Below, one piece after another: positions 7,947-28,787 of a DNA stretch of 32,000 nucleotides (the first letter of the stretch is position 1; every line of letters starts with the position of its first letter). The translations under genes and the position numbers were made by a program. The notes under the pieces are model-generated. The model searched no databases. It was not told where the DNA came from and saw only the letters and a program-made list of their open reading frames with translations. The stretch is taken from positions 1 to 32,000 of the forward strand of contig NZ_CP064924.1 in the NCBI RefSeq assembly GCF_018336915.1, given 5' to 3'. The DNA is from Acaryochloris marina S15. GTDB lineage: Bacteria; Cyanobacteriota; Cyanobacteriia; Thermosynechococcales; Thermosynechococcaceae.

Positions 7947-8115
7947 GTCTTTCCACCTTCAGAAATCATTGTTCGCCAAGTACCCTTATTTCTCAATATA
8001 AACCCCACCCCCATAGAACGCTCCCCGCTGCACCACCTGAAACCCACTAGGTATCCCCACTTACTCCCTTCCCGCTGTAAAATCGAGAAGAAAGTAAATA
8101 GACGCAGTGAACTGA

Positions 8116-13829: not shown

Positions 13830-14255
13830 TCGGGGTATGACAACGATTCCTCGGATAGAGGGCCATAGGGCCGGAATGCATTGACAGTAAATGTCCTGGC
13901 TTGCAGTCCTATCAAATCTTGAATATTGCGAGGATAAAAGAATATAAAAATGAGTTCTGAATCAAGGGAAGATCATCCTTTTTGGTGTTTAAGAAATTTG
14001 GGCCATATCACCCTTAAAGATGCCCTTGTAAAGGTTCAGATACCTGTAATCCCTTTGTAAAGGGCAGTTCAACAATACAATCATGTATTTTGATTGATAG
14101 GGTTGAACATCACCTTGGCTTCCAATTCGGAAATGTTAGAGCAATTCTGACTTCTCTTGATTCAAATAAAAATAATATCGAACTCTACAACCTTTATCTA
14201 GTAAGGGTTCATGTCCCTATGGTCCTCCATTCGAGGAATCGTTGCCATACCCCGA
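13830..14255. repeat. inverted-repeat-bounded 426-bp element (MITE-like) abutting the truncated integrase
   Basis: TCGGGGTATGACAACGATTCCTCGGATAGAGGGCCATAGGG (13830-13870) matches the reverse complement of 14215-14255 (CCCTATGGTCCTCCATTCGAGGAATCGTTGCCATACCCCGA) with 4 mismatches over 41 bp. No clear target duplication was seen. Confidence 0.55.
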
Positions 14256-15415
14256 ATAAGGACTGGCACCAGATTACCATGAACGATCTGAAGCGCTACA
14301 AGACTTATCTGGAGTCGGGTCGGGAGTTGAAGCAGGGTTCAGTGGGGGCTGTCCTGATTGCAATCAAGAGTTTCTTTGCCTGGTTAGTTAAGGCAGGGTA
14401 TATCGAGGATAACCCCAGTGCGGCCATTAGTATTCCCGTGACCCCAGAGACCGAGGGAAAGAACCTGGAACTGTTTCAGGTGGAGGCATTATTTGAAGCG
14501 TTGACAGGACGAACCACTGAGATCCGGGACCGAGCGATTCTCTGTTTGATGATCTATGCCGGGTTAAGGGCCGAGGAAATCTCTCTGTTGAATGCCGGGG
14601 ATTATAACGGGGTGGAGATCACGATTCGGCAGGCCAAGCATGGGTCCGTGGGTAAGGTGCCAGTTGATGATCTAACGGATGAAGCCCTAAGAGCGAATCT
14701 CAGAATTCGGATGGTGGACTGTGAGGGAGGTATGACAGCGGATGATCCGCTGTTCGTCTCTACGAGTCATCGAAATAAGGGTCAGCGGTTGGGGTATGAG
14801 GGTATCTATAAGCTGGTCAAGGCTTTGGCCCAGGACGCAGGCTGGCCTGATATTCATCCTCACAAGGGACGGCATACCTATGCCAGTCAGTTGATTGAGA
14901 ATGGCATGGATGCTTACCTGGCGATGACATTGATGCGGCAGCGATCTGTGAAGGCATTCGAGGTCTATTCCCAGAAGGTCAGGTATCGGACGGCTAAAGG
15001 AGTATTTCTGGAAAACAAAGGGGAGATGGAGCGACAGCCCATGTCGCTGGAGGAGCTTGTGATGGCTAGTGAGGTGCCAGTGGCTGAAGAGGCGATTGAG
15101 CTAGAAGTTGTCACTGAGGGGCCTGCGAACTGGCCCAAGATTACTGCGGTGGATCTGCCCTTGAATGCGGTCCAGGTGAGGCTGACCCTAGAGATGTCAG
15201 GGAGGAAGAAGGGTGTGGTCAGGAAGGCGATCGAGGAGCGGGTGCTGAGTCCGTTTCAGATGGTCAAACCTAAGAAGAGGGGGAATGAGTATGAGCTGAC
15301 GGTTGTGGTTGAAGAAGACGATGCGTTGTCTGCTATCACCGATCAGATGCGCTGGGATATGGAGGTGCTGGGGGAGTTAGATGATTGCGAGGTGAATGTG
15401 AAGTGGTTGGATTGA
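14090..15415 (+). CDS. tyrosine recombinase/integrase, 5'-truncated chimeric copy
   Basis: From 14258 (K57-D58, ..KDWHQITMNDLKRYK) to the 3' end, this ORF is collinear with and very similar to the 21504 integrase. Catalytic motifs are present (AGLRAEEIS, HPHKGRHTYAS, FEVYSQ). The first 56 codons start at TTG and are supplied by the IR-bounded element 13830-14255, so they replace part of the core-binding domain. The copy is likely non-functional. Confidence 0.8.
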   Translation: MIDRVEHHLGFQFGNVRAILTSLDSNKNNIELYNLYLVRVHVPMVLHSRNRCHTPNKDWHQITMNDLKRYKTYLESGRELKQGSVGAVLIAIKSFFAWLVKAGYIEDNPSAAISIPVTPETEGKNLELFQVEALFEALTGRTTEIRDRAILCLMIYAGLRAEEISLLNAGDYNGVEITIRQAKHGSVGKVPVDDLTDEALRANLRIRMVDCEGGMTADDPLFVSTSHRNKGQRLGYEGIYKLVKALAQDAGWPDIHPHKGRHTYASQLIENGMDAYLAMTLMRQRSVKAFEVYSQKVRYRTAKGVFLENKGEMERQPMSLEELVMASEVPVAEEAIELEVVTEGPANWPKITAVDLPLNAVQVRLTLEMSGRKKGVVRKAIEERVLSPFQMVKPKKRGNEYELTVVVEEDDALSAITDQMRWDMEVLGELDDCEVNVKWLD

Positions 15416-15433: not shown

Positions 15434-18400
15434 CTAATCCCACTGCCTTAGTCGTTGTTTTTGAACGTGTTTTTCTGCTGCTTCTATACTTTCGTACCAC
15501 TGTGGATATCGTTTGTGTAAGGCAGCCGCGACCTTGTTGCAGTCCCTGTTGATGTCAACCTTGATGTTCTGGGGAAGGGGCGAGTTGCAAATCAATGGAG
15601 GTTTCTTACCCACTAGTTGAGATTGGGTGAGATTGTTTGTCTTACGGAAGTTTGAATTCAACAGAATGGCGCTGCTGAGGTCGGCGCTGCTGAGATCGGC
15701 GCTGCTGAGATCGGCGCTGCTGAGGTCGGCGCTGCTGAAGTTGGCGCTGCTGAGGTAGGCGCTGAAGAGGTTGGCGCTGCTGAGGTTGGCGCTGCGGAGG
15801 TCGGCGCTGCTGAGGTCGGTTCTGCTGAGGTTGGCGCTGCTGAGGTCGGCGCTGCTGAGGTAGGCGCTGCGGAGATTGGCTCTGCGGAGGTAGGCACTGC
15901 TGAGGTAGGCGCTGCTGAGGTAGGCGCTGCTGAGGTCGGCGCTGCGGAGGTTGGCGCTGCTGAGGTCGGCGCTGCTGAGGTCGGCGTTGCGGAGGTAGGC
16001 GCTGCTGAGGTAGGCGCTGCTGAGGTCGGCGCTGCTGAGGTTGGCGCTGCTGAGGTTGGCGCTGCGGAGGTCGGCGCTGCTGAGGCTGGCGCTGCGGAGG
16101 TTGGCGCTGCTGAGGTCGGTGCTGCGGAGGTTGGCGCTGCTGAGGTCGGCGCTGCGGAGGTTAGCGCTGCTGAGGTCGGCGCTGCGGAGGTTGGCGCTGC
16201 GGAGGTCGGTGCTGCTGAGGTCAGCGTTTTCAAGGGGAGCTTGAAACAGTGGACGACAGTTCCCAAATAGCCGCTCTGCAAGATAAATTGGGACCCATGC
16301 CATCTCTTTTTGTTTTTTACATCCTCCCACTAACGCTTCAACTACCAGTTTCTCTTCATAAGTCCCTTCTATATCTAACCGGGCATAATCTCTTTTAACT
16401 GTAACTTCATGAATATTATGCTCAACAACAACAACTAGTAGAATTAAGGCAAAACCGATCACACCAGCTAAACTTAGCTTCTGACGGTGGAGAACTTTCT
16501 CGTATTGACTCCCTTGAAGTAAAGGCTTGAGATCGTCGGGAATTGCTACTGTCAGCAAATATTCCTTTGCCATAAAATCTAGAAAAATATAGTCACGCAG
16601 AGGCGCTTCATCACGAGTCTGACGAGACAGCAATCGCAGTAGTGGATGGGTTAAGTTGGGCAAGGTTCGCTGATACTGCTGAGCAATTTCTAATTGGAGG
16701 GGTCCAATGCCTCCTCTCACTGCTGTTACCATCAGTTGCTGAAAAGCTTGTCGCACCCCCTTATTTTGATCTGGTGTCAAATTCAAGACTAGATAATGTC
16801 TTAGCCAATCAGGAATATATCCATAGCGAAACCAAGGTAAACGCACAAGCTGAGAGAGGGTAGAACCCGACAATAAAGCCCGTCCCTCGGTATTCTGGAG
16901 CACATTACCTAGGTACACTGTTATCGTCCAATGCAGCTCAGGGAATACAGCGCAAGCGGCAAACCAATACAAACCTGACTCACCCAGATACGTGGAGAGT
17001 TCTGCCAACATCTGTTGCCCTTCCTCCGCTTTTGGCGGATACCGTTCTAACCAGCGTCGGGACCGGATCGCTAGCATCTCAGGAAATGGTGTTGAAGGCG
17101 CTTCAGCTAATCGATAGACGGTAGAACCCTTAAGGAAAATTTGTGGAAATGCTGCGATACCTTGGGGGGTTAGGGGCAGTAAAATAAACTGCTGTACCAA
17201 CTTAAATTCCCATTGACTCCAACTTTCTACAGGGTTGGGGGTTAGAATCACCCGTTGTTTCCAGGCTTGAATTAGCTCAAACCAGGGTTCAGGTTCACCT
17301 GTCTGATGGCTAAAAAGAGTCTCAGCTTCGGCCACAATTACTAACCGATCTTTGCTGTATTGATTGAATATGCCTTGTAAGGACTGGGGATATTGGGTGT
17401 GGCGTTCTGGGTAACAAATCTGAGCATCCCCATCAAAAAAATAGCGTTTAATGTAGACTCCGTTTTTTTGGAGTTGTTGAATGAGTTCTTCCGTTAGCTT
17501 GGCTTGGTGATCTGCATAACTGGCCCGATCGATTAAAAATAAATATTCAGGTATAACTTTTTTGGTGCCATAGATCGGGGTGAACCATCCCCCCTGCTTA
17601 ATAGAAGCTAGAAGTGTTTGCTGTATATCCAGAGTATTGGCAATTTGTTGGGTTCGTCGGCGTAGTTTCTGGGCCGTTTGAAAAATAAGGGTTGATGGAA
17701 ACAATGAACTTTCGATACCCTGCATTGAAATCTTCTGGAGTTCAGGGGATTGGTTGCTTTCTCGACGATTGAGAAACTGACGGGCAATTCGATACCACCA
17801 ATAGCGCCAAATCAATAGAACGGCTGAAACTATCCCTAGGAAGAGAAGCACTCTCATTTGAGACCATTGACTTTCACGCATCGAAGCAGGTGGTTCAGGG
17901 GCTTCTAATGAGAACGGATCTGGTTCGCTAGGGAGTGGGCTAGAGGCTGGAGTAGATGAAGGGCTAGGGGCTGGAGTAGATGAAGGGCTAGGGGCTGGAG
18001 TAGATGAAGGGCTAGGGGCTGGAGTAGATGAAGGGCTAGGAATCAGACCTTTGTGTAGTCGGCTGGGTAAAAATAACACGACCCCAGCAACGATGACCAC
18101 TCCCACTAGACGCCGTATGAGTGTCCTCCCCCCCTTTTGAATACGTGCCAAATCTTCCGCCAAGCCCTCAGCGATCTGCTCTGGGGTTTCAGGAGGGCGA
18201 TAATCCTCTAGCTTGAGCTGCTTCGCCCATTCTTCAAATCGCTCTTGAAAATCAATCTGTTCTGTAGCGGAACTGCAAACGATGGGGCCAATAAATGACT
18301 TTAGCTGCCTTAAATCAGACAGTTCTCCTTGAGCAACCAGATTTAAAAGTAGATCTTGAACGGCAATATATTGCTGAATTCCAATGTTGTAATCCGCATC

Positions 18401-18475
18401 ACGCAGATCATCCAAGAACTGCACCACCAGCTCAGATGCTAGTCTTGCTGGAGTGGTTGATTTTCCTGACTCCAT
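15434..18475 (-). CDS. 1013-aa multi-domain membrane protein: CoxE-like N-terminal region, PS-rich linker, MIDAS-less vWA-like core, about 39 pentapeptide repeats, and a short C-terminal domain
   Basis: The ORF is intact and overlaps the upstream AAA+ gene by 37 nt. There are three hydrophobic helices (LVGVVIVAGVVLFLP; VLLFLGIVSAVLLIW; GVIGFALILLVVVV). The N-terminus (FLDDLRDADYNIGIQQYIAVQDLL..EQIDFQERFEEW) and the core (YLFLIDRASYAD..IKRYFFDGD..RLVIVAEAETLF..KQRVILTPNPVESW) follow the pattern I know from CoxE-type vWA partners of MoxR ATPases. The DxSxS and SDG positions are not conserved. Confidence 0.8.
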   Translation of the reverse strand: MESGKSTTPARLASELVVQFLDDLRDADYNIGIQQYIAVQDLLLNLVAQGELSDLRQLKSFIGPIVCSSATEQIDFQERFEEWAKQLKLEDYRPPETPEQIAEGLAEDLARIQKGGRTLIRRLVGVVIVAGVVLFLPSRLHKGLIPSPSSTPAPSPSSTPAPSPSSTPAPSPSSTPASSPLPSEPDPFSLEAPEPPASMRESQWSQMRVLLFLGIVSAVLLIWRYWWYRIARQFLNRRESNQSPELQKISMQGIESSLFPSTLIFQTAQKLRRRTQQIANTLDIQQTLLASIKQGGWFTPIYGTKKVIPEYLFLIDRASYADHQAKLTEELIQQLQKNGVYIKRYFFDGDAQICYPERHTQYPQSLQGIFNQYSKDRLVIVAEAETLFSHQTGEPEPWFELIQAWKQRVILTPNPVESWSQWEFKLVQQFILLPLTPQGIAAFPQIFLKGSTVYRLAEAPSTPFPEMLAIRSRRWLERYPPKAEEGQQMLAELSTYLGESGLYWFAACAVFPELHWTITVYLGNVLQNTEGRALLSGSTLSQLVRLPWFRYGYIPDWLRHYLVLNLTPDQNKGVRQAFQQLMVTAVRGGIGPLQLEIAQQYQRTLPNLTHPLLRLLSRQTRDEAPLRDYIFLDFMAKEYLLTVAIPDDLKPLLQGSQYEKVLHRQKLSLAGVIGFALILLVVVVEHNIHEVTVKRDYARLDIEGTYEEKLVVEALVGGCKKQKEMAWVPIYLAERLFGNCRPLFQAPLENADLSSTDLRSANLRSADLSSANLRSADLSSANLRSTDLSSANLRSASLSSADLRSANLSSANLSSADLSSAYLSSAYLRNADLSSADLSSANLRSADLSSAYLSSAYLSSAYLRRANLRSAYLSSADLSSANLSRTDLSSADLRSANLSSANLFSAYLSSANFSSADLSSADLSSADLSSADLSSAILLNSNFRKTNNLTQSQLVGKKPPLICNSPLPQNIKVDINRDCNKVAAALHKRYPQWYESIEAAEKHVQKQRLRQWD
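15665..16226 (-). repeat. about 38 tandem 15-nt units encoding A(D/N/Y)L(S/R)S pentapeptides
   Basis: The plus strand reads GCTGCTGAGGTCGGC and its variants. The codons are almost fixed (GCC, CTC, AGC). Variation is essentially limited to (G/A/T)AC and (A/C)GC. Confidence 0.95.
17937..18040 (-). repeat. 4.3 tandem copies of a 24-bp unit encoding (PSPSSTPA)n
   Basis: GGGCTAG(A/G)GGCTGGAGTAGATGAA is repeated head to tail. It lies between the first two hydrophobic helices of the 1013-aa protein. Confidence 0.95.
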
Positions 18476-19449
18476 CGTTCAATGACACCTCTAGCTTTGG
18501 GGATATCTTCAGCCGTTTTAATCAAACTACTCAAAGTCTTCAATACAAGACTTTGGTCTTCTAACGGGTTAGATTTGCCCTCTCCAAACCGCTGCAGTGT
18601 CAAAATCCAGCCCAGTAGTTCAGCCGTTGCAGGCTTTTTACGCAAGCCATTCTCAGGGGCACGTAAGCGATCAAATATATCCAATGCTGTTCTCAAAAAA
18701 GCATTATTGACATCGGTATTCGTTCCTAAATGGCTGGCGATAATATGCGTTAATCGCTCCTTCATGGGGAAGGGCACATTGTAATAAATACAACGCCGTA
18801 GAAAGGCATCTGGCAGGTCTTTTTCAGAGTTGCTAGTGATCACGACCAATGGCTGGAGGGCAGGATCTGCTTCAATCTTGGCATTCTCCAACTCACTGAC
18901 TTTGAAATACAGTTGCTCTAGCTCGTTGAGCAGATCATTGGGGAAGTCCCGTGGGGCTTTGTCTACTTCATCAATCAGTACCACGGAGCGCTGGGGTTGA
19001 AATGATTCAAAATCGGTGGGTAGATATTGTTGAACCTCACCCCACTGTCGAGTACGTAAAATAGCTAAACCCAAAGCTTGATAGGAGATGTAGTTTAAGA
19101 TCGTGCTCGATGTCAAACCGCTCTGAATATCTTGAAACCGCTTAAGAGCGTCGTAGGTATAGAACAGATCACGCGCAGAACTATCGGACTTGGTTTCAAA
19201 TTTGAGCGGAGGTTCAAACCCCAATTCCCAGGCCAAGTTATAGGCGAATTGAGTTTTCCCTGTGCCTGGTTCCCCTGTCAGAAGCAAAGGCTGTCCCAGT
19301 AGTAACGCTACATTACATGCATCTCGTAATCCTTCATCTGCGATATAGCTCTCAGGGTTTAGTAATCGAGATCGTTGAGGGATGGGTAAGCTAGCCGCCA
19401 CCTGCCGATGGTTACCACTGGCATCCCCTCGGTAAAATGGGAGTTCCAT
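18439..19449 (-). CDS. AAA+ ATPase, MoxR/CoxD (AAA_5-like) type, 336 aa
   Basis: Walker A is LLLTGEPGTGKTQ, Walker B is VVLIDEVDKA, sensor-1 is VVITSN, and LPDAFLRRC is present. The start overlaps the upstream stop as TAATG. Confidence 0.88.
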   Translation of the reverse strand: MELPFYRGDASGNHRQVAASLPIPQRSRLLNPESYIADEGLRDACNVALLLGQPLLLTGEPGTGKTQFAYNLAWELGFEPPLKFETKSDSSARDLFYTYDALKRFQDIQSGLTSSTILNYISYQALGLAILRTRQWGEVQQYLPTDFESFQPQRSVVLIDEVDKAPRDFPNDLLNELEQLYFKVSELENAKIEADPALQPLVVITSNSEKDLPDAFLRRCIYYNVPFPMKERLTHIIASHLGTNTDVNNAFLRTALDIFDRLRAPENGLRKKPATAELLGWILTLQRFGEGKSNPLEDQSLVLKTLSSLIKTAEDIPKARGVIERWSQENQPLQQD

Positions 19450-20561
19450 TAAAGTTGCCTCCCACTGATAACCGCTTCTTTTAAAAGCTTCGTTAAATGA
19501 GTTGCGACGTTATCCATCGGCATCGTTTCTTCTTGCTCAAACAACTGACCCACAGCACTCAACAGTTGCTCTAGGACGGCTTCACCCGTGAATTGACTGG
19601 TCTCTGGGCAACGTACCCAGTCCTCGACATGAGTACGATTTACATTATCGAGCTTGGGTAAAACAACCCCAGTCAAGTGATTAAAATCTCTAAATTCTGA
19701 TGCATTGAGATTTTCTAGCTGCTCAATAATCTCATGGTTCATTTTTTGACATCGGCGGCATTTTATAAATCGTCTAAATCGTCTCAACCAGGCAAAAGGG
19801 TTTATCAACCACCTACGTTTCCTCTCTATTCTCGACCGTTTAAGTTGATATTTGACGAAGACACAAACAACTAGCGTTTGATTGACCCCTAATTCTGGCC
19901 ATCGCTGCCAGAATTCTAATATTTTATGTATTAGGTCTGGCCCCAGCCGACGCCAATCGTCCGTCAGCAGATGTAGATGGACGATTACGGGGCCAGGATG
20001 TTTACCAAAGGTTTTGTTGATTTGCTCGACGGGGGCATAACTATTATTTTCAACAGTATCTGCTAAGTTTTTTGATAATCTAGCTGATAGCCTGTCCAAA
20101 TTCTTTAGACTAGCAGGCCATTGCAGATGATGTTCCTTAATCGCTGTTTGCTTGAGGTCAATGTTTAAGAGGCGAGGTAAGGAAACCTTGCGCAAGCGCT
20201 CCAGAAACTTATCATGACTCTGCAACTCATCCCCGTGTATCAGGCAAATTAATGGCTGTCGTTTTGATCGTGATTGCCATTTCTGAATCGCTAGACTCAG
20301 CGTATACTCCTGATCCGTTCGGTCAGGCAAATAGGGCAAGAGTGAAGGAATGACTGGCTTCGCACTCAAACCTTTTTGATCTAGGGCTATCCCGTTACTA
20401 TCAACAAAATATACGTTGCTCCCGGATATATTATTCGCATTCCCCCCAGACATCTGCCCAAAAGTCTGCCCCTGATTGTTGCCTATGTCTTGTTGAGCTT
20501 GATTTGTCGGCTTTGAGCTTTGCTCTGGAGAACTCTCTGGCGATGGATGCATTGAGGGCAA
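19449..20561 (-). CDS. 370-aa protein: N-terminal Q/N/G-rich motif plus an NTPase-like core with no Walker A
   Basis: The ORF is intact, with a TTG start in the track and an ATG at 20552. It contains ..QQDIGNNQGQTFGQMSGGNANNISGSNVY.., then LPYLPDRTDQEYTL..RQPLICLIHGDELQSHDKFLERL. No GxxxxGK[ST] motif occurs anywhere in the protein. Confidence 0.75.
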   Translation of the reverse strand: MPSMHPSPESSPEQSSKPTNQAQQDIGNNQGQTFGQMSGGNANNISGSNVYFVDSNGIALDQKGLSAKPVIPSLLPYLPDRTDQEYTLSLAIQKWQSRSKRQPLICLIHGDELQSHDKFLERLRKVSLPRLLNIDLKQTAIKEHHLQWPASLKNLDRLSARLSKNLADTVENNSYAPVEQINKTFGKHPGPVIVHLHLLTDDWRRLGPDLIHKILEFWQRWPELGVNQTLVVCVFVKYQLKRSRIERKRRWLINPFAWLRRFRRFIKCRRCQKMNHEIIEQLENLNASEFRDFNHLTGVVLPKLDNVNRTHVEDWVRCPETSQFTGEAVLEQLLSAVGQLFEQEETMPMDNVATHLTKLLKEAVISGRQL

Positions 20562-20588
20562 ATCACACTAAAGGAGTAAATTTTAGAC

Positions 20589-21077
20589 CTATAGATTTAT
20601 ATCACCTTGAACAGAGTCAATTACGCCGATATTTTTAACGTTTCCTCCTGACATCTGACCAATCACGACCCCCTGGTTCTCATCAATATTTTGCTGAGCA
20701 ACATTCTGGTTAGCTGAGGGCTGAATATCCGCAAAGATTTCTGCAATAGCAGCTTCTAATTGTGAATCATTTGCCAAAATCGTTGCTAATTCCTCTTGCA
20801 AGGCTTCCTTCCAAGCAGCACTTTCAGGAGTTGTCGCCAGCTTCTCAGCAGCGATCTGCGCTGCAGCTTCAGATTCTACCTTTGGGTGTAACTTACCCCA
20901 AATAGCCTTTGCTCTTTCCCAAGTATCTTCTCCTAACTTTTTAGCAGCTCCATCTAATGCTGGGGCACCAACTTTTTTCAGCAGGAAAGGCAAACAGGGA
21001 GCTAAAAATGATGTCAGAGCGATGATATCCATAAGAGATAAAAGCTGAGCAACAATCCGAAACATCACCTTTATCAC
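20589..21077 (-). CDS. small (148-162 aa) alpha-helical protein with a hydrophobic N-terminus and a C-terminal Q/N/G-rich motif
   Basis: The ORF is intact. The track start is GTG at 21077, and a more plausible ATG at 21032 gives MDIIALTSFLAPCLPFLLKKVGAPALDGAAKKLGEDTWERAKAIW... The C-terminus is ..QQNIDENQGVVIGQMSGGNVKNIGVIDSVQGDINL. Confidence 0.75.
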   Translation of the reverse strand: MIKVMFRIVAQLLSLMDIIALTSFLAPCLPFLLKKVGAPALDGAAKKLGEDTWERAKAIWGKLHPKVESEAAAQIAAEKLATTPESAAWKEALQEELATILANDSQLEAAIAEIFADIQPSANQNVAQQNIDENQGVVIGQMSGGNVKNIGVIDSVQGDINL

Positions 21078-21503: not shown

Positions 21504-22916
21504 ATGTCGCGTTTCTCTCAAACTTCCGACATCCCAACCGTCCGTCTGATTGAGTTCGGCACAGAAAAACCAGAGGAGAGCAAACCTGCATCTGAAACGC
21601 CCTTGCCTAAGCCAGCGGTAGTGAATCTGCGTCAAGTCAGAATCGAACAGTTCCTCACCCTGAAGAACCTGGCGGCCAACACCCGACGCAACTATGAACG
21701 TCATCTACGACAGTTCAGTTTATGGGTGAACAAGGACTGGCATCAGATTACCATGAACGATCTGAAACGCTACAAGACTTATCTAGAGTCAGGTCGGCAG
21801 TTAAAGCAGGGGTCGGTCGGGGCGATATTGACGGCTCTTAAAAGCTTCTTTTCCTGGCTGAAGAAGGCTGGGTACATTGAGGAGAATCCAGGGACGGCGA
21901 TCAGTATTCCGGTAACTCCAGAGACGGAGGGGAAGAATCTAGAGCTGTTCCAGGTGGAGGCACTGTTTGAGGCACTGGAGAAGCGGAAGACAAAGAGACG
22001 TGATCGGGCGATCCTGTGTTTGATGGTGTTTGCCGGGATGCGGGCTGAGGAAATCTCTCATCTCAATGCCGGGGATTATAACGGGGTGGAAATCACTATC
22101 CGTCAGGCCAAGCATGGATCCGTGGGTCGGGTACCTGTGGATGAGCAAACCGATGCAGCACTGCGGGCTAATCTTCGGGTTCGGATGGTGGATGGTGAGG
22201 GAGGGATGACAGCAGATGATCCGATGTTTGTCTCTACGAGTCATCGAAATAAGGGTCAACGGTTGGGGTATGAGGGTATCTATAAGATGGTCAAAGCCTT
22301 GGCCCAAGATGCAGGCTGGCCTGATATTCATCCCCATAAAGGACGACATACCTATGCCAGTCAGTTGATTGAGAATGGCATGGATGCGTACCTGGCGATG
22401 ACGTTGATGCGGCAGCGATCTGTGAAAGCATTTGAGGTCTATTCCCAGAAGGTCCGGTATCGGACGGCTAAGGGAGTCTTTCTGGAAAGCAAAGGGGAAG
22501 TGGAACGACAGCCAATGCCGCTGGAGGATCTGGTGGCATTTAGCGAGGTGCCAGTGGCAGAAGAGGCGATTGAGCTAAAAGTTGTCACTGAGGAGCCTGC
22601 GAACTGGCCCAAGATTACTGCGGTGGATCTGCCCTTGAATGCGGTCCAGGTGGGGCTGACGGTTGAGGTTTCAGGGAAGAAGAAGGGTGTGGTCAGGAAG
22701 GAGATCGAAGAGCGGGTTTTGAGTCCGTTTCAGATGGTCAAACCTAAGAAGAGGGGGAATGAGTATGAGCTGACGGTTGTGGTTGAGGAAGACGATGCGT
22801 TGTCTGCTATCACCGATCAGATGCGCTGGGATATGGAGCTACTGGCTGAGCTGGATGATTGCGAGGTGAAAGTGGTGTGGGTTGGGGATGGTTTGACCCG
22901 AAAGTGTTTGATATAG
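21504..22916 (+). CDS. tyrosine recombinase/integrase (470 aa), full-length copy with a long C-terminal extension
   Basis: It has an ATG start and an N-terminal SAM-like core-binding region (IEQFLTLKNLAANTRRNYERHLRQF). Catalytic motifs are AGMRAEEIS, KHGSVGRVPV, HPHKGRHTYAS and FEVYSQ. About 155 aa follow the catalytic Tyr codon at 22440. Confidence 0.88.
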   Translation: MSRFSQTSDIPTVRLIEFGTEKPEESKPASETPLPKPAVVNLRQVRIEQFLTLKNLAANTRRNYERHLRQFSLWVNKDWHQITMNDLKRYKTYLESGRQLKQGSVGAILTALKSFFSWLKKAGYIEENPGTAISIPVTPETEGKNLELFQVEALFEALEKRKTKRRDRAILCLMVFAGMRAEEISHLNAGDYNGVEITIRQAKHGSVGRVPVDEQTDAALRANLRVRMVDGEGGMTADDPMFVSTSHRNKGQRLGYEGIYKMVKALAQDAGWPDIHPHKGRHTYASQLIENGMDAYLAMTLMRQRSVKAFEVYSQKVRYRTAKGVFLESKGEVERQPMPLEDLVAFSEVPVAEEAIELKVVTEEPANWPKITAVDLPLNAVQVGLTVEVSGKKKGVVRKEIEERVLSPFQMVKPKKRGNEYELTVVVEEDDALSAITDQMRWDMELLAELDDCEVKVVWVGDGLTRKCLI

Positions 22917-23079: not shown

Positions 23080-24225
23080 TTGAAGGAGACCGCTTTGAAA
23101 AAACAACGCCACTGTGATCCAAAAGTTGAGCAACTTCTTGATGAACTGATGCAGGACTACAGCAGTCCTGAGCAGATATTGGGGGAGGAGGGATTAATCA
23201 AGCAATTATCAAAACGCCTGATTGAGAAAGCCTTACAAGCAGAACTGAGCCATCATCTGCAAAGCACACCCACAGGAGAGTCTCCATCGCCTTCAAAATC
23301 GGGCAATAGTCGTAATGGGTATTCCGCTAAAACGATCAATACCGAACAAGGGGCTTTCGACCTTCAGATCCCTCGAGATCGCCTCAGCGAGTTTGAGCCG
23401 ATTATTGTGCCTAAAGGCCAGCGTCGATTGGCCGGTCTTGATGAGAAGATTTTGGCACTGTATGCACGAGGGAGCAGTACCCGAGATATTCAAGGCCAGC
23501 TGGAAGAGTTGTATGGAATTGAGCTATCCCCAACCCTGATTTCTCAAGTCACCGATGCGATTATGGAAGAAGTCCGTCAGTGGCAAACTCGCCCCGTGGA
23601 TGCGCTGTATCCCATCCTGTTTTTGGATGCATTGTACGTCAAAATCCGCCAAGAAGGACGGGTTAAAAGTCGGGCAGTGTATGTGGTATTAGGGATTAAC
23701 CTCGATGGCCACAAAGAAGTCTTAGGCTTATGGATCGGACCTCAAGAACGGGAGGGGGCTAAATTCTGGCTCAAGGTCTTGACGGATCTCAAAAATCGGG
23801 GGCTACAAGATGTTTTTATCGCTTGTGTAGACGGATTAACAGGTTTTCCAGAAGCCATTGAAACCCTCTATCCCCAGACTCATGTGCAACTCTGTATCGT
23901 CCACTTGATCCGCAATTCTCTCAAATATGTCAGTTGGAAACACCGCAAGGAAGTTGCAGCTGATCTCAAGCCGATTTATCAAGCGGCAACGGTCTGTGAG
24001 GCGGAAGATGCTCTGACTCACTTTGCCGATAAGTATGATCAGGTTTATCCCACCATCAGTCAAATTTGGCTGCGCCATTGGGAAAGGGTGATTCCTTTGT
24101 TTGATTATCCGCCTGACATTCGCAAGGCCATTTACACCACCAATGCCATTGAATCAGTCAATCGTAGTCTCAGAAAGGTTTTGAAAACTAAAGGAGCATT
24201 CCCAGATGAAACCCTGATTGCCTGA
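23080..24225 (+). pseudogene. IS256-family (Mutator-type) transposase, 3'-truncated
   Basis: Typical IS256 sequence is present (..GNSRNGYSAKT..FEPIIVPKGQRR..ILFLDALYVKIR..FIACVDGLTGFPEAI..LCIVHLIRNSL..IYTTNAIESVNRSLRKV). It ends at ..GAFPDETLIA with a stop supplied by the end of the neighbouring IS. The usual C-terminal tail of about 40 aa is absent downstream. Confidence 0.85.
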
Positions 24226-25520
24226 CAGAAGTAGGTCAAAGCCTTTATTTACATAGTTTATGAGAAAAGAGTGGAGAGACATGTGAGGCTAGATTTAATC
24301 ACAAATCAGCGTTATTCAAATGTCAGGCCCCACCCAAATTTATCGTCAACTGTTTTCCTTTTTACGTCAACACAGCCATTATCGAGATTTGCGCCATCTC
24401 ATTGCTCTGGGCTGGATGGTAAGCGCGTTAATCTGTAGTGAACGCTTAAGCTTATCTGCCTGGGAATCCTATGTTCCCTGCCGAGCCAGAAAAGCCCAAA
24501 GTGTCGAGCGTCGGTGGCAACGATTTATAGCCAATCAACGCATTGATATTAACAAGCTATATGTACCTCTAGTCCTGCTAGCCCTTAAGAACTGGCACTC
24601 TCATCGTCTATACCTGGCAATGGATACAACGGTGTTATGGAATGAATATTGCATGATTCATCTATCCGTCGTCTGCTGTGGCAGAGCAGTACCGTTGTTG
24701 TGGAAAGTATTAGAGCACAAGAGTGCGGCTGTCGCTTTTGAGGAATATCAACCGTTATTGCGTCAAGCCCGTTGGTTATTACGGCAGCATCCAGATGTCA
24801 TGTTATTAGCAGATCGTGGGTTTGCAAACCATCAACTGATGAGCTGGTTACAACAGAGCCATTGGCATTACTGTCTGCGTATCCCTTGTGATGTCCTTCT
24901 TCATGGTCCACGTCAATGTCCAAGAGAAGTCCGACAATTGTGGCCATCCAAAGGAGCAGCAGTCCTCTACCGCAATGTAGGGCTTTGGGAAGATGGCATC
25001 TATCGGTGCAATCTGGTGTTGGCTAATATCCGAGGAGTGAAAGAACCATGGGCGGTGATTACAGATGAATCACCCACTTTACAGACCTTGTGGCAATACG
25101 CTTTGAGGTTTCGGGTCGAAGAATTATTTCTCGATAGTAAGTCTGGAGTGTTTGAGCTAGAAGAGTCGAAAATTCGTTGTGCTGATGCATTGGAGAGACT
25201 TTATCTGGTTGCTGCTGTGGCACTGCTATTCAGCACGACTCATGGGATGGCTGTTCACATTAAAGGGCTGCGCCAACAGGTTGACCCACATTGGCGACGA
25301 GGCATTAGTTATCTCAAAATTGGATTGCGATGGCTCAAGGGAGTCGTCCATAAAGGACGGGAGTTGTTGATGCCAGTCCCCTTGCTCTGCCATGATCCAC
25401 AACCGTGTTTTGCGTCTAAAAAAGCTCAAAAGAAACACTACAACAAAATCTGGTTCTCTCGCATCCGCTCTTTACAGTGCAAGGCTTTATGAGCAGGGGA
25501 AGGCGAAGATCTGTCAGGCA
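24219..25520 (+). mobile_element. IS4/IS701-like insertion sequence (about 1.3 kb)
   Basis: The 11-bp inverted ends are TGCCTGACAGA (24219-24229) and TCTGTCAGGCA (25510-25520), enclosing a DDE transposase ORF. The IR is short and no target duplication was seen. Confidence 0.6.
24320..25492 (+). CDS. IS4/IS701-like DDE transposase (390 aa)
   Basis: The ORF is intact. Its motifs are LYLAMDTT, VMLLADRGFANHQL and RFRVEELFLDSKSG. Confidence 0.75.
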   Translation: MSGPTQIYRQLFSFLRQHSHYRDLRHLIALGWMVSALICSERLSLSAWESYVPCRARKAQSVERRWQRFIANQRIDINKLYVPLVLLALKNWHSHRLYLAMDTTVLWNEYCMIHLSVVCCGRAVPLLWKVLEHKSAAVAFEEYQPLLRQARWLLRQHPDVMLLADRGFANHQLMSWLQQSHWHYCLRIPCDVLLHGPRQCPREVRQLWPSKGAAVLYRNVGLWEDGIYRCNLVLANIRGVKEPWAVITDESPTLQTLWQYALRFRVEELFLDSKSGVFELEESKIRCADALERLYLVAAVALLFSTTHGMAVHIKGLRQQVDPHWRRGISYLKIGLRWLKGVVHKGRELLMPVPLLCHDPQPCFASKKAQKKHYNKIWFSRIRSLQCKAL

Positions 25521-25731: not shown

Positions 25732-26226
25732 ATGAGGAACATGATGAATAAACAAAGCATTTTTATTGCCGCTGCTCTGTCATTTATCGCTACAGCAGTA
25801 ACGGCACAAGAACTAAAATTTGATGGTATCGCCGACGTTAACCATACACGTAATGACAGTATTATTCTTGAGAAGGTTGACGGCGGTAGCCATAACGTAA
25901 CTGTCCAGTCGAGAAATGGAGATGTGAATCTTTTCAAGGTAGATGGCGGAAGCTCTAATATTCGCATTATCGCCGAGGGGGATGTTCGCTTTTCACAAAA
26001 AATAGATGGTGGCAGCCGAGTCCATGTCGAAGCTAGAACGGGAGACATCTTCTTTGGTCAAAAAATAGATGGTGGTTCCGAAGTCGTTCTAATGGCCCCA
26101 AATGGCACAATTACTCTAGCCCAGAAGATAGATGGTGGCTCAACCGTCCGCTGGTGTGCACAAAGTTTAGATGCAGGAAGTCAAGGTATTCGCGGAAGCT
26201 CGACTGTAACTAGAGTTTGTCCTTAA
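25732..26226 (+). CDS. secreted 164-aa protein built from 21-aa K(I/V)DGGS repeats (predicted beta-solenoid)
   Basis: An AAGGA Shine-Dalgarno sequence lies upstream. The signal peptide is MRNMMNKQSIFIAAALSFIATAVTAQE. Five to six repeats follow, such as KVDGGSHNVTVQSRNGDVNLF and KIDGGSRVHVEARTGDIFFGQ. Two C-terminal Cys residues are present. Confidence 0.75.
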   Translation: MRNMMNKQSIFIAAALSFIATAVTAQELKFDGIADVNHTRNDSIILEKVDGGSHNVTVQSRNGDVNLFKVDGGSSNIRIIAEGDVRFSQKIDGGSRVHVEARTGDIFFGQKIDGGSEVVLMAPNGTITLAQKIDGGSTVRWCAQSLDAGSQGIRGSSTVTRVCP

Positions 26227-27457: not shown

Positions 27458-28787
27458 CAGGGTAAGCGCAAGAAAATCAAGCCTCTGAAAGGCTAGACTG
27501 TAAAGGAAGAGAAGCGCCTAGAACTTTGAGCATATACGCTTCATCCATGCTCGCCCGTTTTAGTTTTTGACGGGTACTTTTCTTAAAGGACGTTTCTTGA
27601 TTGAGAAGGTTGATGCTCCAGCGTCTCAGGATGGCCATGTTTTCCGGCGCATGTCCTGTGCGAATGCGGCTAGCATCTTCGCCAAAGGTCACGTCTAAGA
27701 CCCAGTGGAGTTGGTTCTCAATCGACCAATGCTGGCGGATGGCTTTGCCCAACTGCTGAGCATTTGGCGGTAGAGAACTGATATAAAACATCACCTCATA
27801 GGTGGTTTTGTTCCACAGATGTCGGGTCCGAGCGACCTTGACGATGGTTTGCAAGCCCTTCCACTGCGCCTGCTTGTACAGAGGACCCATCTGTTGAAGG
27901 GACACGGCCCAAACTTGTCGTTTCTCGCGACGATGGTGCCCTGCTTCCACCCGGGCATCATAGCTGTGCTCAATGCACTTAAACTCATTCGCTTCAGCCG
28001 TTTCAAACCATTGCTCAACCTGCTCAAACAGCGTGGGATGATTCTCCTTGAGGGCCAGCACATAGTCAGCCTCTTTAGCTTGAATGTGGCGGGCAATCTC
28101 GTGCTGAGTTCCCATTGCATCAATGGTAATAATGCACCCGGCAATGTCTAATAGCTCTAGCAGTGCTGGAATAGCGGTAATTTCGTTACTCTTGTCTGCA
28201 ACTTTGACCTGTCCTAGAAATAACCGATACTCACTGGCCCAAGCACTGACCAGATGCAATGCGGATTGGTCTTGATTGCGATCATAGGAACCTCTGAGTT
28301 GTTTGCCGTCAATCGGTATCACTTGAGCGCCGAGGGTTGTCACTACCTGATCCAACCAGTGATTGAAACTCCGCTCAAAAGCGGTGGGGCAAATACGCTC
28401 AAACACTCGTCGATAGGTGTCTGCTGTCGGTATCCCGGACGGTAGCCTCAGAAAACTCGACAACCAATCTTGATGGCTTAGACCATAGGTTTCAATGTCT
28501 TCCCACCCTTGTGCGCCACCTAAACTTGCCAATAGTCCAATCACGACGATGCTGACAAACGGATGCTGGACACCTTGGCCTCCACGTGGATCAGGCAAAT
28601 CTTCAAAACACTCGGACAATTGTTGATAAGCCTGATCGCAATCACTGGCAGGCAGGAGTGACGAGGATGAGTCAGTGGAAGCTGGTGAGGAAGGAGGCTT
28701 GCTGAATCCTGTAGCCATGGGGAAACCCTTTTAACAGAATGGAGTTCCATAGCATATTACAGCTTCATTTTTCTTGCGCTGCCCCTG
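27458..28787 (-). mobile_element. ISAs1-family insertion sequence (1330 bp)
   Basis: The inverted ends are CAGGGTAAGCGCAAGAAAA.. and ..TTTTTCTTGCGCTGCCCCTG. A 10-bp target duplication CATACGGATG lies at 27448-27457 and 28788-28797. Confidence 0.9.
27477..28718 (-). CDS. ISAs1-family (H-repeat-associated type) transposase, 413 aa
   Basis: The ORF is intact. It contains ..LPDPRGGQGVQHPFVSIVVIGLLASLGGAQGWEDIETYG..IDGKQLRGS..ITIDAMGTQHEIA..HWSIENQLHWVLDVTFGED. Confidence 0.88.
   Translation of the reverse strand: MATGFSKPPSSPASTDSSSSLLPASDCDQAYQQLSECFEDLPDPRGGQGVQHPFVSIVVIGLLASLGGAQGWEDIETYGLSHQDWLSSFLRLPSGIPTADTYRRVFERICPTAFERSFNHWLDQVVTTLGAQVIPIDGKQLRGSYDRNQDQSALHLVSAWASEYRLFLGQVKVADKSNEITAIPALLELLDIAGCIITIDAMGTQHEIARHIQAKEADYVLALKENHPTLFEQVEQWFETAEANEFKCIEHSYDARVEAGHHRREKRQVWAVSLQQMGPLYKQAQWKGLQTIVKVARTRHLWNKTTYEVMFYISSLPPNAQQLGKAIRQHWSIENQLHWVLDVTFGEDASRIRTGHAPENMAILRRWSINLLNQETSFKKSTRQKLKRASMDEAYMLKVLGASLPLQSSLSEA

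Follow-up and report, generated by a model that had tools for sequence, protein, structure and literature searches.

In ordinary NLRs, the STAND NTPase itself both senses and oligomerises. Bell/BASS-NLR pairs consist of a small Bell-family protein and an NB-ARC or NACHT protein with TPR or WD repeats, which are encoded, mainly in cyanobacteria, by collinear neighbouring genes only a very short spacer apart and share a Q/N/G/V/I-rich motif of about 25-30 residues at the C-terminus of the effector and the N-terminus of the partner (Dyrka et al. 2020, 10.1101/2020.01.06.895854; JMB 2020). BASS motifs form fibrils and prions (10.1101/2020.01.06.895854). In the fungal HET-S/NWD2 system of Podospora anserina, the templating motif lies at the N-terminus of a STAND protein that oligomerises, namely a NACHT NTPase with WD repeats, and the templated motif at the C-terminus of the adjacent helical pore-former, an effector with a HeLo domain and an HRAM motif in two pseudorepeats. 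A Bell-like effector that is amyloid-linked to a partner other than an NLR has experimental precedent in Bab/Agp of E. coli ECOR25, an amyloid-controlled antiphage system. In this system, the effector Bab has a C-terminal amyloid motif, the adjacent partner carries the motif at its N-terminus, and signalling by amyloid conversion, leading to abortive infection, has been shown experimentally (Ibarlosa et al. 2024, 10.1101/2024.11.07.622273).

The iSTAND/MoxR/vWA ternary conflict systems are encoded in the order third component, MoxR, vWA, with an inactive STAND domain (PF19995) in the third component and a vWA component that has a fast-varying C-terminal module such as pentapeptide repeats, WD40, or FGE-sulfatase domains and, in some of the systems, transmembrane (TM) segments (Kaur et al. 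2020, PMC7159879; 2021, PMC8195603). At the N-terminus, iSTAND proteins have either a signalling enzyme or an adaptor. The adaptors, which are 12 folded effector-associated domains (EADs) or Death-like domains, are mirrored on an adjacent gene and recruit an enzyme; amyloid motifs go undiscussed in these studies (PMC7159879; PMC8195603). For MoxR/vWA systems diversified by diversity-generating retroelements (DGRs), the variable C-terminus of the vWA protein has been proposed to be the sensor, with a third component receiving the signal in its N-terminal module (Dore et al. 2024 PNAS, PMC10907252). These systems are mainly of the VMAP type with peptidase or TIR outputs, and Dore et al. describe no Bell effector or amyloid motif and make no mention of iSTAND (PMC10907252).

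Here, a locus of the cyanobacterium Acaryochloris marina S15 is described that lies in a window of 32,000 nucleotides, this being the whole stretch of DNA analysed; all features given below are on its minus strand. The best reading of this locus is a four-gene operon joining a Bell-family cell-death module to an iSTAND/MoxR-like AAA+/vWA-like ternary system. With the Bell/BASS-NLR pairs it shares a homologous small Bell-family protein, a motif of the same kind at the same two termini, adjacent collinear genes with a spacer of 36 nt, and a mainly cyanobacterial distribution, and the tables of Dyrka et al. list relatives of the family in the window (BAY13571.1 and BASS6 carriers). In contrast to these pairs, the partner is a Walker-less iSTAND protein accompanied by a separate AAA+ ATPase and a vWA-like protein, and the motif lies outside BASS1-10. 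As Dyrka et al. screened NB-ARC/NACHT neighbours only, such an arrangement was out of reach of their survey. The order of the iSTAND, MoxR-like and vWA-like genes, the PF19995 domain, the TM segments and variable C-terminal module of the vWA-like protein, and the mirroring of the iSTAND N-terminus on an adjacent gene are all as in the systems of Kaur et al., whereas the adaptor is short, predicted to be disordered and of amyloid type, and the protein it would recruit is of the Bell type, probably a membrane effector, instead of an enzyme.

The likeness to Bab/Agp is that the motif lies at the C-terminus of a Bell-like effector and at the N-terminus of its neighbour, which is not an NLR; unlike the locus in the window, Bab/Agp has no AAA+ or vWA component, and Bab is shorter (109 aa compared with 147 aa). 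Neither a PDB sequence search nor Foldseek gave a sequence or fold match between Bab and the small protein. The arrangement of HET-S/NWD2 is paralleled as well, with templating being presumed for the locus in the window, and no sequence relation was detected beyond sub-threshold SesA/HetE-N matches. The systems of Dore et al. resemble the locus in having a MoxR-like ATPase and a vWA component, here vWA-like, and a relative of the operon (L081/L082) has a DGR beside its vWA-like gene.

The small protein is encoded at 20589..21032 and starts at the ATG at 21032 (MDIIAL...), resulting in 147 aa that comprise a helical N-domain and a disordered tail according to homologue lengths, the alignment with BAY13571.1 and an AlphaFold2 (AF2) model. 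Exactly this length is found in 20 of 27 aligned homologues, while most others have 138-166 aa; homologues mostly begin with MD, ME, or MN, position 2 being D or E in most. The sequence-only reading had proposed a Bell-like effector with a hydrophobic N-terminus, and both parts of this proposal were borne out. The protein matches BAY13571.1 from the published Bell-side set (BLASTP E 4e-13, 36% identity, residues 47-138), which was entered as a Bell/NLR pair in Table S2 of Dyrka et al. (10.1101/2020.01.06.895854). Relatives with BASS6 tails match it with tblastn E-values of 1e-14 to 1e-26, and the tails of relatives sharing the N-domain score 31-50 bits with a BASS6 HMM built from published BASS6 sequences only. 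The N-terminus reads MDIIALTSFLAPCLPFLL and is a hydrophobic helix with an acidic position 2, as in Bell proteins. Its hydrophobic segment IIALTSFLAPCLPFLLKKV (residues 3-21, preceded by Asp2; 20970..21026) has a 19-residue Kyte-Doolittle mean of 1.65 and is the sole strongly hydrophobic segment of the protein; T7, F9, L10, P12, and L14-L17 are almost invariant among homologues. These sequence similarities support membership of the small protein in the Bell family.

A search for Bell- or HeLo-like profiles or structures, which the sequence-only reading had suggested, was thus positive at the level of homology to BAY13571.1, but not at the level of the fold. AF2 predicts helices over residues 3-101 with a pLDDT of about 70-90 and a disordered tail (residues 105-147, pLDDT <50). 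Disorder is expected for a soluble monomer, but it is no positive evidence for amyloid. Foldseek with this model gave no match with E < 1 in the PDB and no HeLo-, MLKL-, or Bab-like fold, a result that speaks neither for nor against a fold of the HeLo or Bab kind, because helical bundles with disordered tails are poorly discriminated. The family profile found nothing among PDB sequences and retrieved no Bab entry. Pfam gave no match for the small protein of the window; among 28 members of its family, one matched SesA (E 0.0087) and five matched HetE-N (0.012 at best), in every case below the Pfam cut-offs. PADLOC and NCBIfam contained no model matching the small protein or the iSTAND protein. 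An assignment to EACC1 was dropped: this domain, described from two-gene caspase systems of actinobacteria, has a single TM segment, and Pfam gave no match to it.

The stop of the effector gene is separated by 36 nt from the start of the gene for the iSTAND protein (19449..20552), which is identified by a match over the full Pfam profile PF19995 (E 2.5e-22, 80.4 bits, positions 1-163 of 163). The sequence-only reading had given this protein 370 aa, counted from the upstream TTG at 20561 with which the open reading frame opens; the most likely start is the ATG at 20552, resulting in 367 aa. Its further description as a Walker-less protein that is followed by a MoxR and a vWA-like membrane protein agrees with the absence of a P-loop, the Pfam AAA match and the NorD-VWA fold match reported here. 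No Walker A motif and no repeats were found, and the partner is thus no NB-ARC/NACHT NLR. The sequence HGDELQSHDK (20208..20237) occupies the position of a degenerate P-loop: in a profile-profile alignment it lies opposite the Walker A motif GPSGSGKS of nSTAND1 partners. HGDE.Q is invariant among iSTAND orthologues, and GxxxxGK[ST] is absent from every iSTAND-type partner examined. Pfam gave no match N-terminal to the iSTAND domain, be it a signalling enzyme, an EAD, or a Death-like adaptor; it is there that the 27-aa motif described below is located.

The genes for the AAA+ ATPase and the vWA-like protein are directly downstream of the iSTAND gene with overlapping stops and starts, as in the TAATG at the end of the iSTAND gene. 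The MoxR-like AAA+ ATPase (336 aa, 18439..19449) contains intact Walker A (GEPGTGKT, 19252-19275) and Walker B (VVLIDEVD, 18961-18984) motifs and is 62-95% identical across all iSTAND-type loci. It matches Pfam AAA (3e-9) and AAA_5 (7e-8) above threshold and bpMoxR with only 16.7 bits, and its profile has its best PDB match in midasin AAA domains (6.6e-7). Placement at the AAA_5/midasin-like level, as suggested by these profile matches, is consistent with the MoxR/midasin/dynein group.

The last gene (15434..18475) encodes a membrane protein of 1013 aa, whose architecture was derived from hydrophobic segments, Pfam, and ortholog comparison. An N-terminal helical region is followed by TM1, a P/S/T repeat loop, TM2, a vWA-like alpha/beta domain with a helical domain, TM3, and a pentapeptide-repeat module (Pfam 2.3e-42), the hydrophobic segments being located at residues about 121-142, 207-226, and 668-688. 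In orthologues, the N-terminal approximately 700 residues are conserved, and the C-termini vary between pentapeptide, WD40, FGE-sulfatase, serine-hydrolase, and lysozyme-family domains. The vWA-like core (residues about 274-449, 17129..17656) was recognized in an AF2 model of residues 225-653 (mean pLDDT 78.8), for which the top three Foldseek matches in the PDB were the NorD VWA domain in NorQ-NorD complexes. These matches have E-values of 7e-4 to 1e-3 and a probability of 1.00, with a TM-score of only 0.30-0.37 by target and a high rmsd. In the matched complexes, NorQ is a MoxR-type ATPase bound to the NorD VWA domain. Pfam vWA matched neither the 1013-aa protein nor 64 homologues, and the MIDAS position reads DRASYAD, of the pattern DRxSxxD, instead of DxSxS. 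The predicted vWA domain thus rests on a modest fold match and misses the canonical MIDAS.

TM3, the pentapeptide-repeat module, and a conserved C-terminal tail (15434..16486) form a candidate extracytoplasmic sensor; as the module follows the third transmembrane segment, it is probably located outside the cytoplasm. This region is homologous to the C-terminal module of an nSTAND1-type partner of another Bell gene (locus L035; E 7e-43, non-repeat flanks included). In the relative L081/L082, an FGE-sulfatase module with the C-type-lectin fold is the equivalent C-terminal module and adjoins a DGR.

The link between both halves of the operon is a Q/N/G-rich motif of 27 residues, which is C-terminal in the 147-aa protein and N-terminal in the iSTAND protein. 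The two terminal peptides named in the sequence-only reading are encoded on the minus strand as it had described, and the shared motif it had claimed is real. BLASTP aligns residues 125-151 of the small protein (numbering of the 162-aa open reading frame) with residues 20-46 of the partner with 17/27 identities and no gaps (E 5e-8). A Smith-Waterman comparison of the effector tail with the partner N-terminus gave a score of 89, while 2000 composition-preserving shuffles had a mean of 27.5, an SD of 5.2, and a maximum of 52 (z = 11.8). The effector-side core NVAQQNIDENQGVVIGQMSGGNVKNIG is located at 20625..20705 within a tail (20592-20720) that includes the effector-only end IDSVQGDINL; the partner-side core NQAQQDIGNNQGQTFGQMSGGNANNIS corresponds to residues 17-43 of the 367-aa iSTAND protein (20424..20504). 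The cores consist of Q, N, and G to 52% on the effector side (one K, no P or L) and to 63% on the partner side (no P, L, or K). Both fit the published composition of BASS motifs, which are rich in Q, N, G, V, and I and poor in K, P, and L.

At the DNA level, where similarity had likewise been claimed, a similarity is present, but it is modest (51/81 nt between the cores). Synonymous codons differ at 9 of the 17 identical residues, which indicates that the likeness is kept at the protein level and does not stem from a recent duplication or gene conversion; the latter is ruled out by this codon usage. When the window was translated in all six frames, a profile of the motif matched two sites only, with 60 and 57 bits; the next best score was 5.6 bits. 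Thus, the motif is no common low-complexity linker in the window, and its being a genome-wide linker, a possibility the sequence-only reading had itself raised, is rejected within these 32 kb.

Co-variation of the termini in orthologous and paralogous pairs, which had been named as a check, was found. Across about 50 related loci, the Bell-like tail and the N-terminus encoded by the downstream gene match each other; among 51 pairs, the mean tail score was 79 with the own partner vs 42 with other partners, and among 10 iSTAND-type pairs the own partner ranked first in 7. Partners with a matching motif are of the NB-ARC, NACHT-like, nSTAND1, and iSTAND types, the motif of the window itself being also found on nSTAND1 and NB-ARC partners. 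One and the same Bell N-domain is combined with three unrelated motif families, and the partner always carries the corresponding family: the first comprises the variants a, b, and c (mutually 97-98% by hhalign), the second is d, and the third, e, equals published BASS6 (97.5%, hhalign). Entire families switch jointly on both genes.

All 12 iSTAND-type loci have the motif on both genes, their iSTAND-type partners being 38-82% identical; they include that of the window, a locus in which an inserted IS element separates the two genes, and another whose partner is frameshifted. Of roughly 800 iSTAND cluster representatives, the 150 nearest include 15 with the motif family of the window at the N-terminus and 3 with a BASS6-like motif. 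The four genes are arranged alike in one BASS6-iSTAND locus, where the upstream gene encodes a BASS6 protein of the Bell family. Identity of the window's motif with BASS6 was rejected, as the BASS6 HMM gave 1.4 bits for the tail and -0.8 bits for the partner vs 31-50 bits for true BASS6 tails, and hhalign found no relation between the two families. Neither the BASS1-10 files nor Table S2 of Dyrka et al. contain its signature strings GQMSGG, IGQM, or IGQMTGG.

On this basis, it is very probable that the terminal motif common to both proteins couples a Bell-family effector to the iSTAND component of a ternary system. A complete signalling route from the sensor via the ATPase and iSTAND to the Bell tail and membrane damage can be proposed with a probability of roughly 0.6. 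A cue would be sensed by the pentapeptide repeats, which here form the variable C-terminal module of the membrane protein with the vWA-like domain. The AAA+ ATPase together with the vWA-like domain would supply a nucleotide-driven step beyond the reach of the Walker-less iSTAND scaffold and might remodel or assemble this scaffold. Clustered iSTAND N-termini would then form a cross-beta nucleus on which the Bell tail would be templated into the same fold, and the released Bell domain would put its N-terminal helix into the membrane, so that the cell is killed or arrested. The outcome could be abortive infection or another form of regulated cell death. The variable C-termini of the vWA-like proteins presumably act as sensors and not as effectors, because the TM-plus-pentapeptide module is located at the sensor end of nSTAND1 partners and a DGR is found beside a related locus. 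Kaur et al. give the vWA C-terminal domains an effector role (PMC7159879), which speaks against this assignment, whereas Dore et al. proposed the same signalling direction in related VMAP ternary systems (PMC10907252).

An unlikely alternative that nevertheless carries some weight is that the shared motif is a non-amyloid homotypic adaptor like the EADs, i.e., a tether of fixed stoichiometry, for example by beta-strand pairing, that works without templating. The EAD principle of Kaur et al. has the same layout of an iSTAND N-terminus and an adjacent effector gene, and the motif lies outside BASS1-10. However, most of the described EADs (9 of 12) fold into alpha-helical domains, while the motif is a stretch of 27-40 residues that is rich in Q, N, G, V, and I, free of P and L, and predicted by AF2 to be disordered. 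In composition and position it is as reported for BASS motifs, and with this Bell N-domain, published BASS6 occurs in a locus of identical four-gene arrangement.

A rather improbable alternative has the small protein bind iSTAND through the motif as a regulator or inhibitor, the true effector being the variable C-terminal module of the vWA-like protein. This would agree with the placement of effectors by Kaur et al., with ortholog C-termini that include enzymes such as a serine hydrolase or a lysozyme-family domain, and with the lack of a Foldseek match of the small protein to a pore-former in the PDB. Homologous Bell-family proteins, however, pair with ordinary NLR-like STAND NTPases without any other effector, the N-terminal hydrophobic helix and the acidic position 2 are conserved, and the Bell-like protein Bab executes cell death; moreover, the pentapeptide module takes the sensor end of nSTAND1 partners and a DGR adjoins the equivalent module in L081. 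Finally, that the biased composition (Q+N+G 52-63%) or a remnant of local duplication produced a functionless, incidental likeness can practically be dismissed given the z-score of 11.8 against composition-preserving shuffles, the two sites only in 32 kb, the 9 synonymous codon differences in 17 identical residues, the retention of both copies of the motif in 12 of 12 iSTAND-type loci with partners 38-82% identical, and the joint switching of entire motif families.

The preferred reading, a Bell-family effector connected by an amyloid-type motif to a ternary system, combines elements with precedents. Kaur et al. 2020 (PMC7159879) have already described the set of partners as an iSTAND/MoxR/vWA ternary conflict system, in which iSTAND is the first gene. 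What is new is the wiring of a Bell/amyloid-type motif to a Walker-less iSTAND scaffold with a separate ATPase/vWA-like pair; a limited literature search, in which absence is not proof, found no paper tying amyloid motifs to iSTAND or MoxR.

Bell-NLR amyloid signalling and MoxR-vWA ternary systems have been two separately run lines of research on bacterial regulated cell death, and the locus of the window together with at least a dozen alike physically unites both. Amyloid-type motifs appear as general-purpose connectors that serve Walker-less STAND scaffolds, too, and therefore surveys limited to NB-ARC/NACHT proteins undercount them. The sensor reading of the vWA C-termini touches a published disagreement between Kaur et al. 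and Dore et al. To our knowledge, no mechanism has been shown to date for the ternary systems. These systems gain a simple read-out, as conversion and membrane relocalisation of the 147-aa protein could reveal the role of the MoxR/vWA-like pair. A more tentative idea, which is possible but for now doubtful, is a chaperone-gated prion switch, in which an AAA+ machine would start or restrain self-templating nucleation on an extracytoplasmic cue, the roles united in an NLR being split among a nucleotide-dead iSTAND scaffold, a MoxR-like AAA+ motor with a vWA-like co-factor, and a membrane sensor. If true, this would be the first immune amyloid switch under ATPase control in trans and would provide the MoxR-vWA ternary systems, long unexplained, with an output that is concrete and can be assayed.

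The four genes of the operon are closely packed and all lie on the minus strand. The first (20589-21032) encodes the 147-aa candidate effector; its start was placed at the ATG at 21032 because most of the 27 aligned homologues begin at the MDIIAL position. The gene for the 367-aa iSTAND (inactive STAND) protein follows after 36 nt (19449-20552 from its ATG, within an open reading frame that opens with TTG at 20561). Its stop is overlapped (TAATG) by the start of the gene for a 336-aa AAA+ ATPase (18439-19449), which in turn has a 37-nt overlap with the gene for a 1013-aa membrane protein (15434-18475).

The C-terminus of the small protein and the N-terminus of the iSTAND protein share a Q/N/G-rich core of 27 residues (20625-20705 and 20424-20504, respectively). 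Both peptides quoted in the sequence-only reading are correct as encoded, and the proposed similarity is confirmed by an ungapped BLASTP alignment with 17 of 27 identities (E 5e-8). The two termini reach a Smith-Waterman score of 89, against 27.5 +/- 5.2 (maximum 52) in 2000 shuffles that preserve composition. When the 32-kb window was translated in six frames and searched with a motif profile, these two sites were the only ones found (60 and 57 bits; the next-best match reached 5.6 bits). The similarity is also visible in the DNA, with 63% identity over 81 nt, and synonymous codons differ at 9 of the 17 identical residues. Thus, the likeness is kept by selection at the protein level and does not stem from a fresh duplication. 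The Bell-side tail carries a conserved additional end, I(D/G)SVQGD(V/I)NL (window 20592-20624), which has no counterpart on the iSTAND side and might cap the fold or add a second rung to it.

A scan with one genome per species yielded 80 loci encoding relatives of the small protein. For small relatives of 100-175 aa, the last 55 residues were aligned to the start of the downstream open frame, which resulted in 51 pairs with a score of at least 50, the window included. Tails scored 79 on average with their own partners, against 42 with partners of other loci. Profile-profile comparison assigned five tail groups to three unrelated motif families, namely family a/b/c with the window motif (groups mutually 97-98% probable), family d of the BAY13571.1 type, and family e, which is the published BASS6 (97.5%). 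In every family the motif of the partner is that of its own effector; whole families have thus been swapped on the two genes in concert, and the termini show the co-variation across loci that the sequence-only reading proposed as a check. Partners comprise NB-ARC proteins with TPR or other repeats, a NACHT-like protein, NB-ARC with PASTA, and nSTAND1 proteins with a transmembrane segment and pentapeptide repeats. At 12 loci, window included, the partner is an iSTAND protein followed by AAA+ and vWA-like genes. The motif is present on both genes in all 12, and in 7 of 10 iSTAND-type pairs the tail matches its own partner best. Two of the 12 are decayed: in Microcoleus (L009; 8594-9490, minus strand) an IS transposase lies between the Bell and iSTAND genes, and in L011 (8491-9604) a frameshift splits the iSTAND gene, with the motif kept on a 65-aa N-terminal fragment. 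Six further loci (L016, L041, L045, L046, L050, and L054; match starts at 8001 or elsewhere depending on the locus) encode single polypeptides of 373-386 aa in which a class-c-like motif (e.g. QITQNVNGNQNQTIGQISGG) lies internally, between a Bell-family N-domain and a C-terminal domain; the latter is CHAT (Pfam) in the two tested, L016 and L041. The motif is thus also found inside a protein, flanked by two putative effector domains.

Homologues of the small protein formed 28 cluster representatives from a large protein collection, and 20 of the 27 aligned have a length of exactly 147 aa. AlphaFold2, run with the homologue alignment, predicts residues 3-101 as helical (block-mean pLDDT about 70-90) and the tail, residues 105-147, as unstructured (pLDDT below 50). 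The sole strongly hydrophobic segment comprises residues 3-21, preceded by Asp at position 2. The protein is not recognized by Pfam, NCBIfam or PADLOC, no fold match to HeLo or to the crystal structure of Bab was obtained, and some relatives have sub-threshold matches to HetE-N and SesA. The last 100 residues of BAY13571.1 align to residues 47-138 (E 4e-13); this protein is present in the Bell-side file of PMC8086366, and Dyrka et al. 2020 (Table S2) list it as a Bell/NLR pair with no class assigned. The same N-domain is found in relatives from Actinobacteria, Chloroflexi, and Nostoc whose tails score 31-50 bits with a BASS6 HMM built from published BASS6 sequences only. Based on this homology and on the BASS6-tailed relatives, the protein proposed to be Bell-like belongs to the Bell family in the sense used by the Saupe and Dyrka groups.

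The 367-aa protein covers the whole Pfam iSTAND profile (PF19995, E 2.5e-22). It has no Walker A motif, in agreement with its initial description as Walker-less, and its HGDE.Q.H, invariant among orthologues, sits opposite the GPSGSGKS of nSTAND1 relatives. The 336-aa ATPase has intact Walker A and B motifs, matches Pfam AAA and AAA_5, and has midasin AAA domains as its nearest solved relatives. The 1013-aa protein has a conserved cytoplasmic core and is hydrophobic at three places (about residues 121-142, 207-226, and 668-688); a loop of P/S/T repeats separates the first hydrophobic segment from the second, and pentapeptide repeats follow the third. No Pfam vWA domain was found in this protein or in 64 homologues. 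When residues 225-653 were modelled with AlphaFold2 (mean pLDDT 78.8), the three best PDB matches of the model were all to the VWA domain of NorD, complexed with the MoxR-type NorQ (E 7e-4 to 1e-3, probability 1.00), with low TM-scores of 0.30-0.37 by target. DRxSxxD replaces the canonical DxSxS at the MIDAS position. Orthologues differ in their C-termini (pentapeptide, WD40, FGE-sulfatase, serine hydrolase, lysozyme family). Gene order, inactive STAND, transmembrane segments, and variable C-terminus fit the iSTAND/MoxR/vWA ternary system (Kaur et al., PMC7159879). The pentapeptide region (window 15533-16240) is a 15-nt periodic array with 270-nt blocks 85-89% identical in DNA, and the predicted TM1-TM2 loop (window 17913-18056) has five 24-nt repeats (PSSTPAPS); both arrays look prone to length change via slippage or recombination.

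With the iSTAND protein as query, exhaustive searching by phmmer yielded 812 cluster representatives (E <= 1e-3). Among the best 150, 15 have an N-terminal a/b/c motif and three a BASS6-like motif. The loci of one BASS6-like representative, P0112 (L081-L084), have the same four-gene layout as the window, encoding a 139-aa Bell-family protein with a BASS6 tail (36 bits with the published-sequence HMM), the BASS6-iSTAND protein, a 336-aa AAA+ ATPase, and a protein of 937 aa with an FGE-sulfatase domain at its C-terminal end. Thus, the arrangement is recurrent, also with a motif family published as amyloid-signalling. Directly after the fourth gene, L081 (9003-10268) and L082 (9027-10292) carry a diversity-generating retroelement (DGR) with an Avd-like bAvd gene and a reverse transcriptase.

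In NLR-like proteins, ligands are sensed at the C-terminal (repeat) end. The C-terminal 350 residues of the 1013-aa protein (third transmembrane segment, linker, pentapeptide repeats, conserved tail) are homologous to the C-terminal module of the nSTAND1-type partner at L035, non-repeat flanks included (E 7e-43). In both proteins, one transmembrane segment separates this module from the cytoplasmic vWA-like or NTPase part. In L081, the DGR adjoins the FGE-sulfatase module, the equivalent of the pentapeptide module. In the proposal of Dore et al. (PMC10907252), variable domains linked to vWA act as sensors, and MoxR relays their signal to the third component's N-terminal module. Together, the module homology, the DGR, and this proposal speak for the vWA C-terminus being a sensor rather than an effector as Kaur et al. 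(PMC7159879) had suggested.

From the architecture and these proposals, we infer that the pentapeptide module would sense a cue, probably outside the cytoplasm, and that the AAA+/vWA-like pair would carry out the nucleotide-dependent remodelling or assembly of which the Walker-less iSTAND protein is itself incapable. By homology and analogy, clustered iSTAND N-termini would then nucleate a cross-beta fold that templates the tail of the Bell protein, and the freed Bell domain would attack the membrane with its N-terminal helix. In the Bab/Agp system, amyloid-motif signalling kills phage-infected E. coli (10.1101/2024.11.07.622273). Instead of forming an amyloid, the motif could serve as a plain, non-templating adaptor as in the effector-associated domain principle, which is rather unlikely. 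That the small protein is a regulator and not an effector is more improbable still. The shuffle statistics, codon differences, and comparison across loci all contradict an origin of the motif likeness by chance, low complexity or recent duplication.

The operon is flanked by two tyrosine-recombinase (phage-integrase family) genes in direct orientation, 14090-15415 (+) and 21504-22916 (+), which are 87% identical over 394 aa and have a spacing of 7474 nt. This pair was found in none of the 80 related loci. The operon may reside on an excisable or movable cassette. One Mutator-family and two DDE (IS4-type) transposases are encoded just beyond it (23080-24225 (+), 24320-25492 (+), and 27477-28718 (-)), so that mobile elements abound across the stretch as a whole. 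A 164-aa open reading frame (25732-26226, +), hydrophobic at its N-terminus, contains five or six QKIDGGS...V repeats; it has no Pfam match and may encode a small secreted beta-solenoid-like protein. A DUF6399 domain (E 5.6e-57) forms the C-terminal part of a 534-aa protein encoded at 8699-10303 (-).

Earlier publications describe, each separately, the Bell/BASS paradigm, the iSTAND ternary system, and the pairing of a BASS motif with a partner that is not an NLR. In the literature searched, no description was found of a Bell/amyloid-type motif joined to the iSTAND/MoxR/vWA system, of the window motif family, which is absent from BASS1-10, or of a modular equivalence of one nSTAND1-TM-pentapeptide protein to three separate ones (iSTAND, AAA+, and vWA-TM-pentapeptide). 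The main value of the finding is that ternary systems gain an assayable output.
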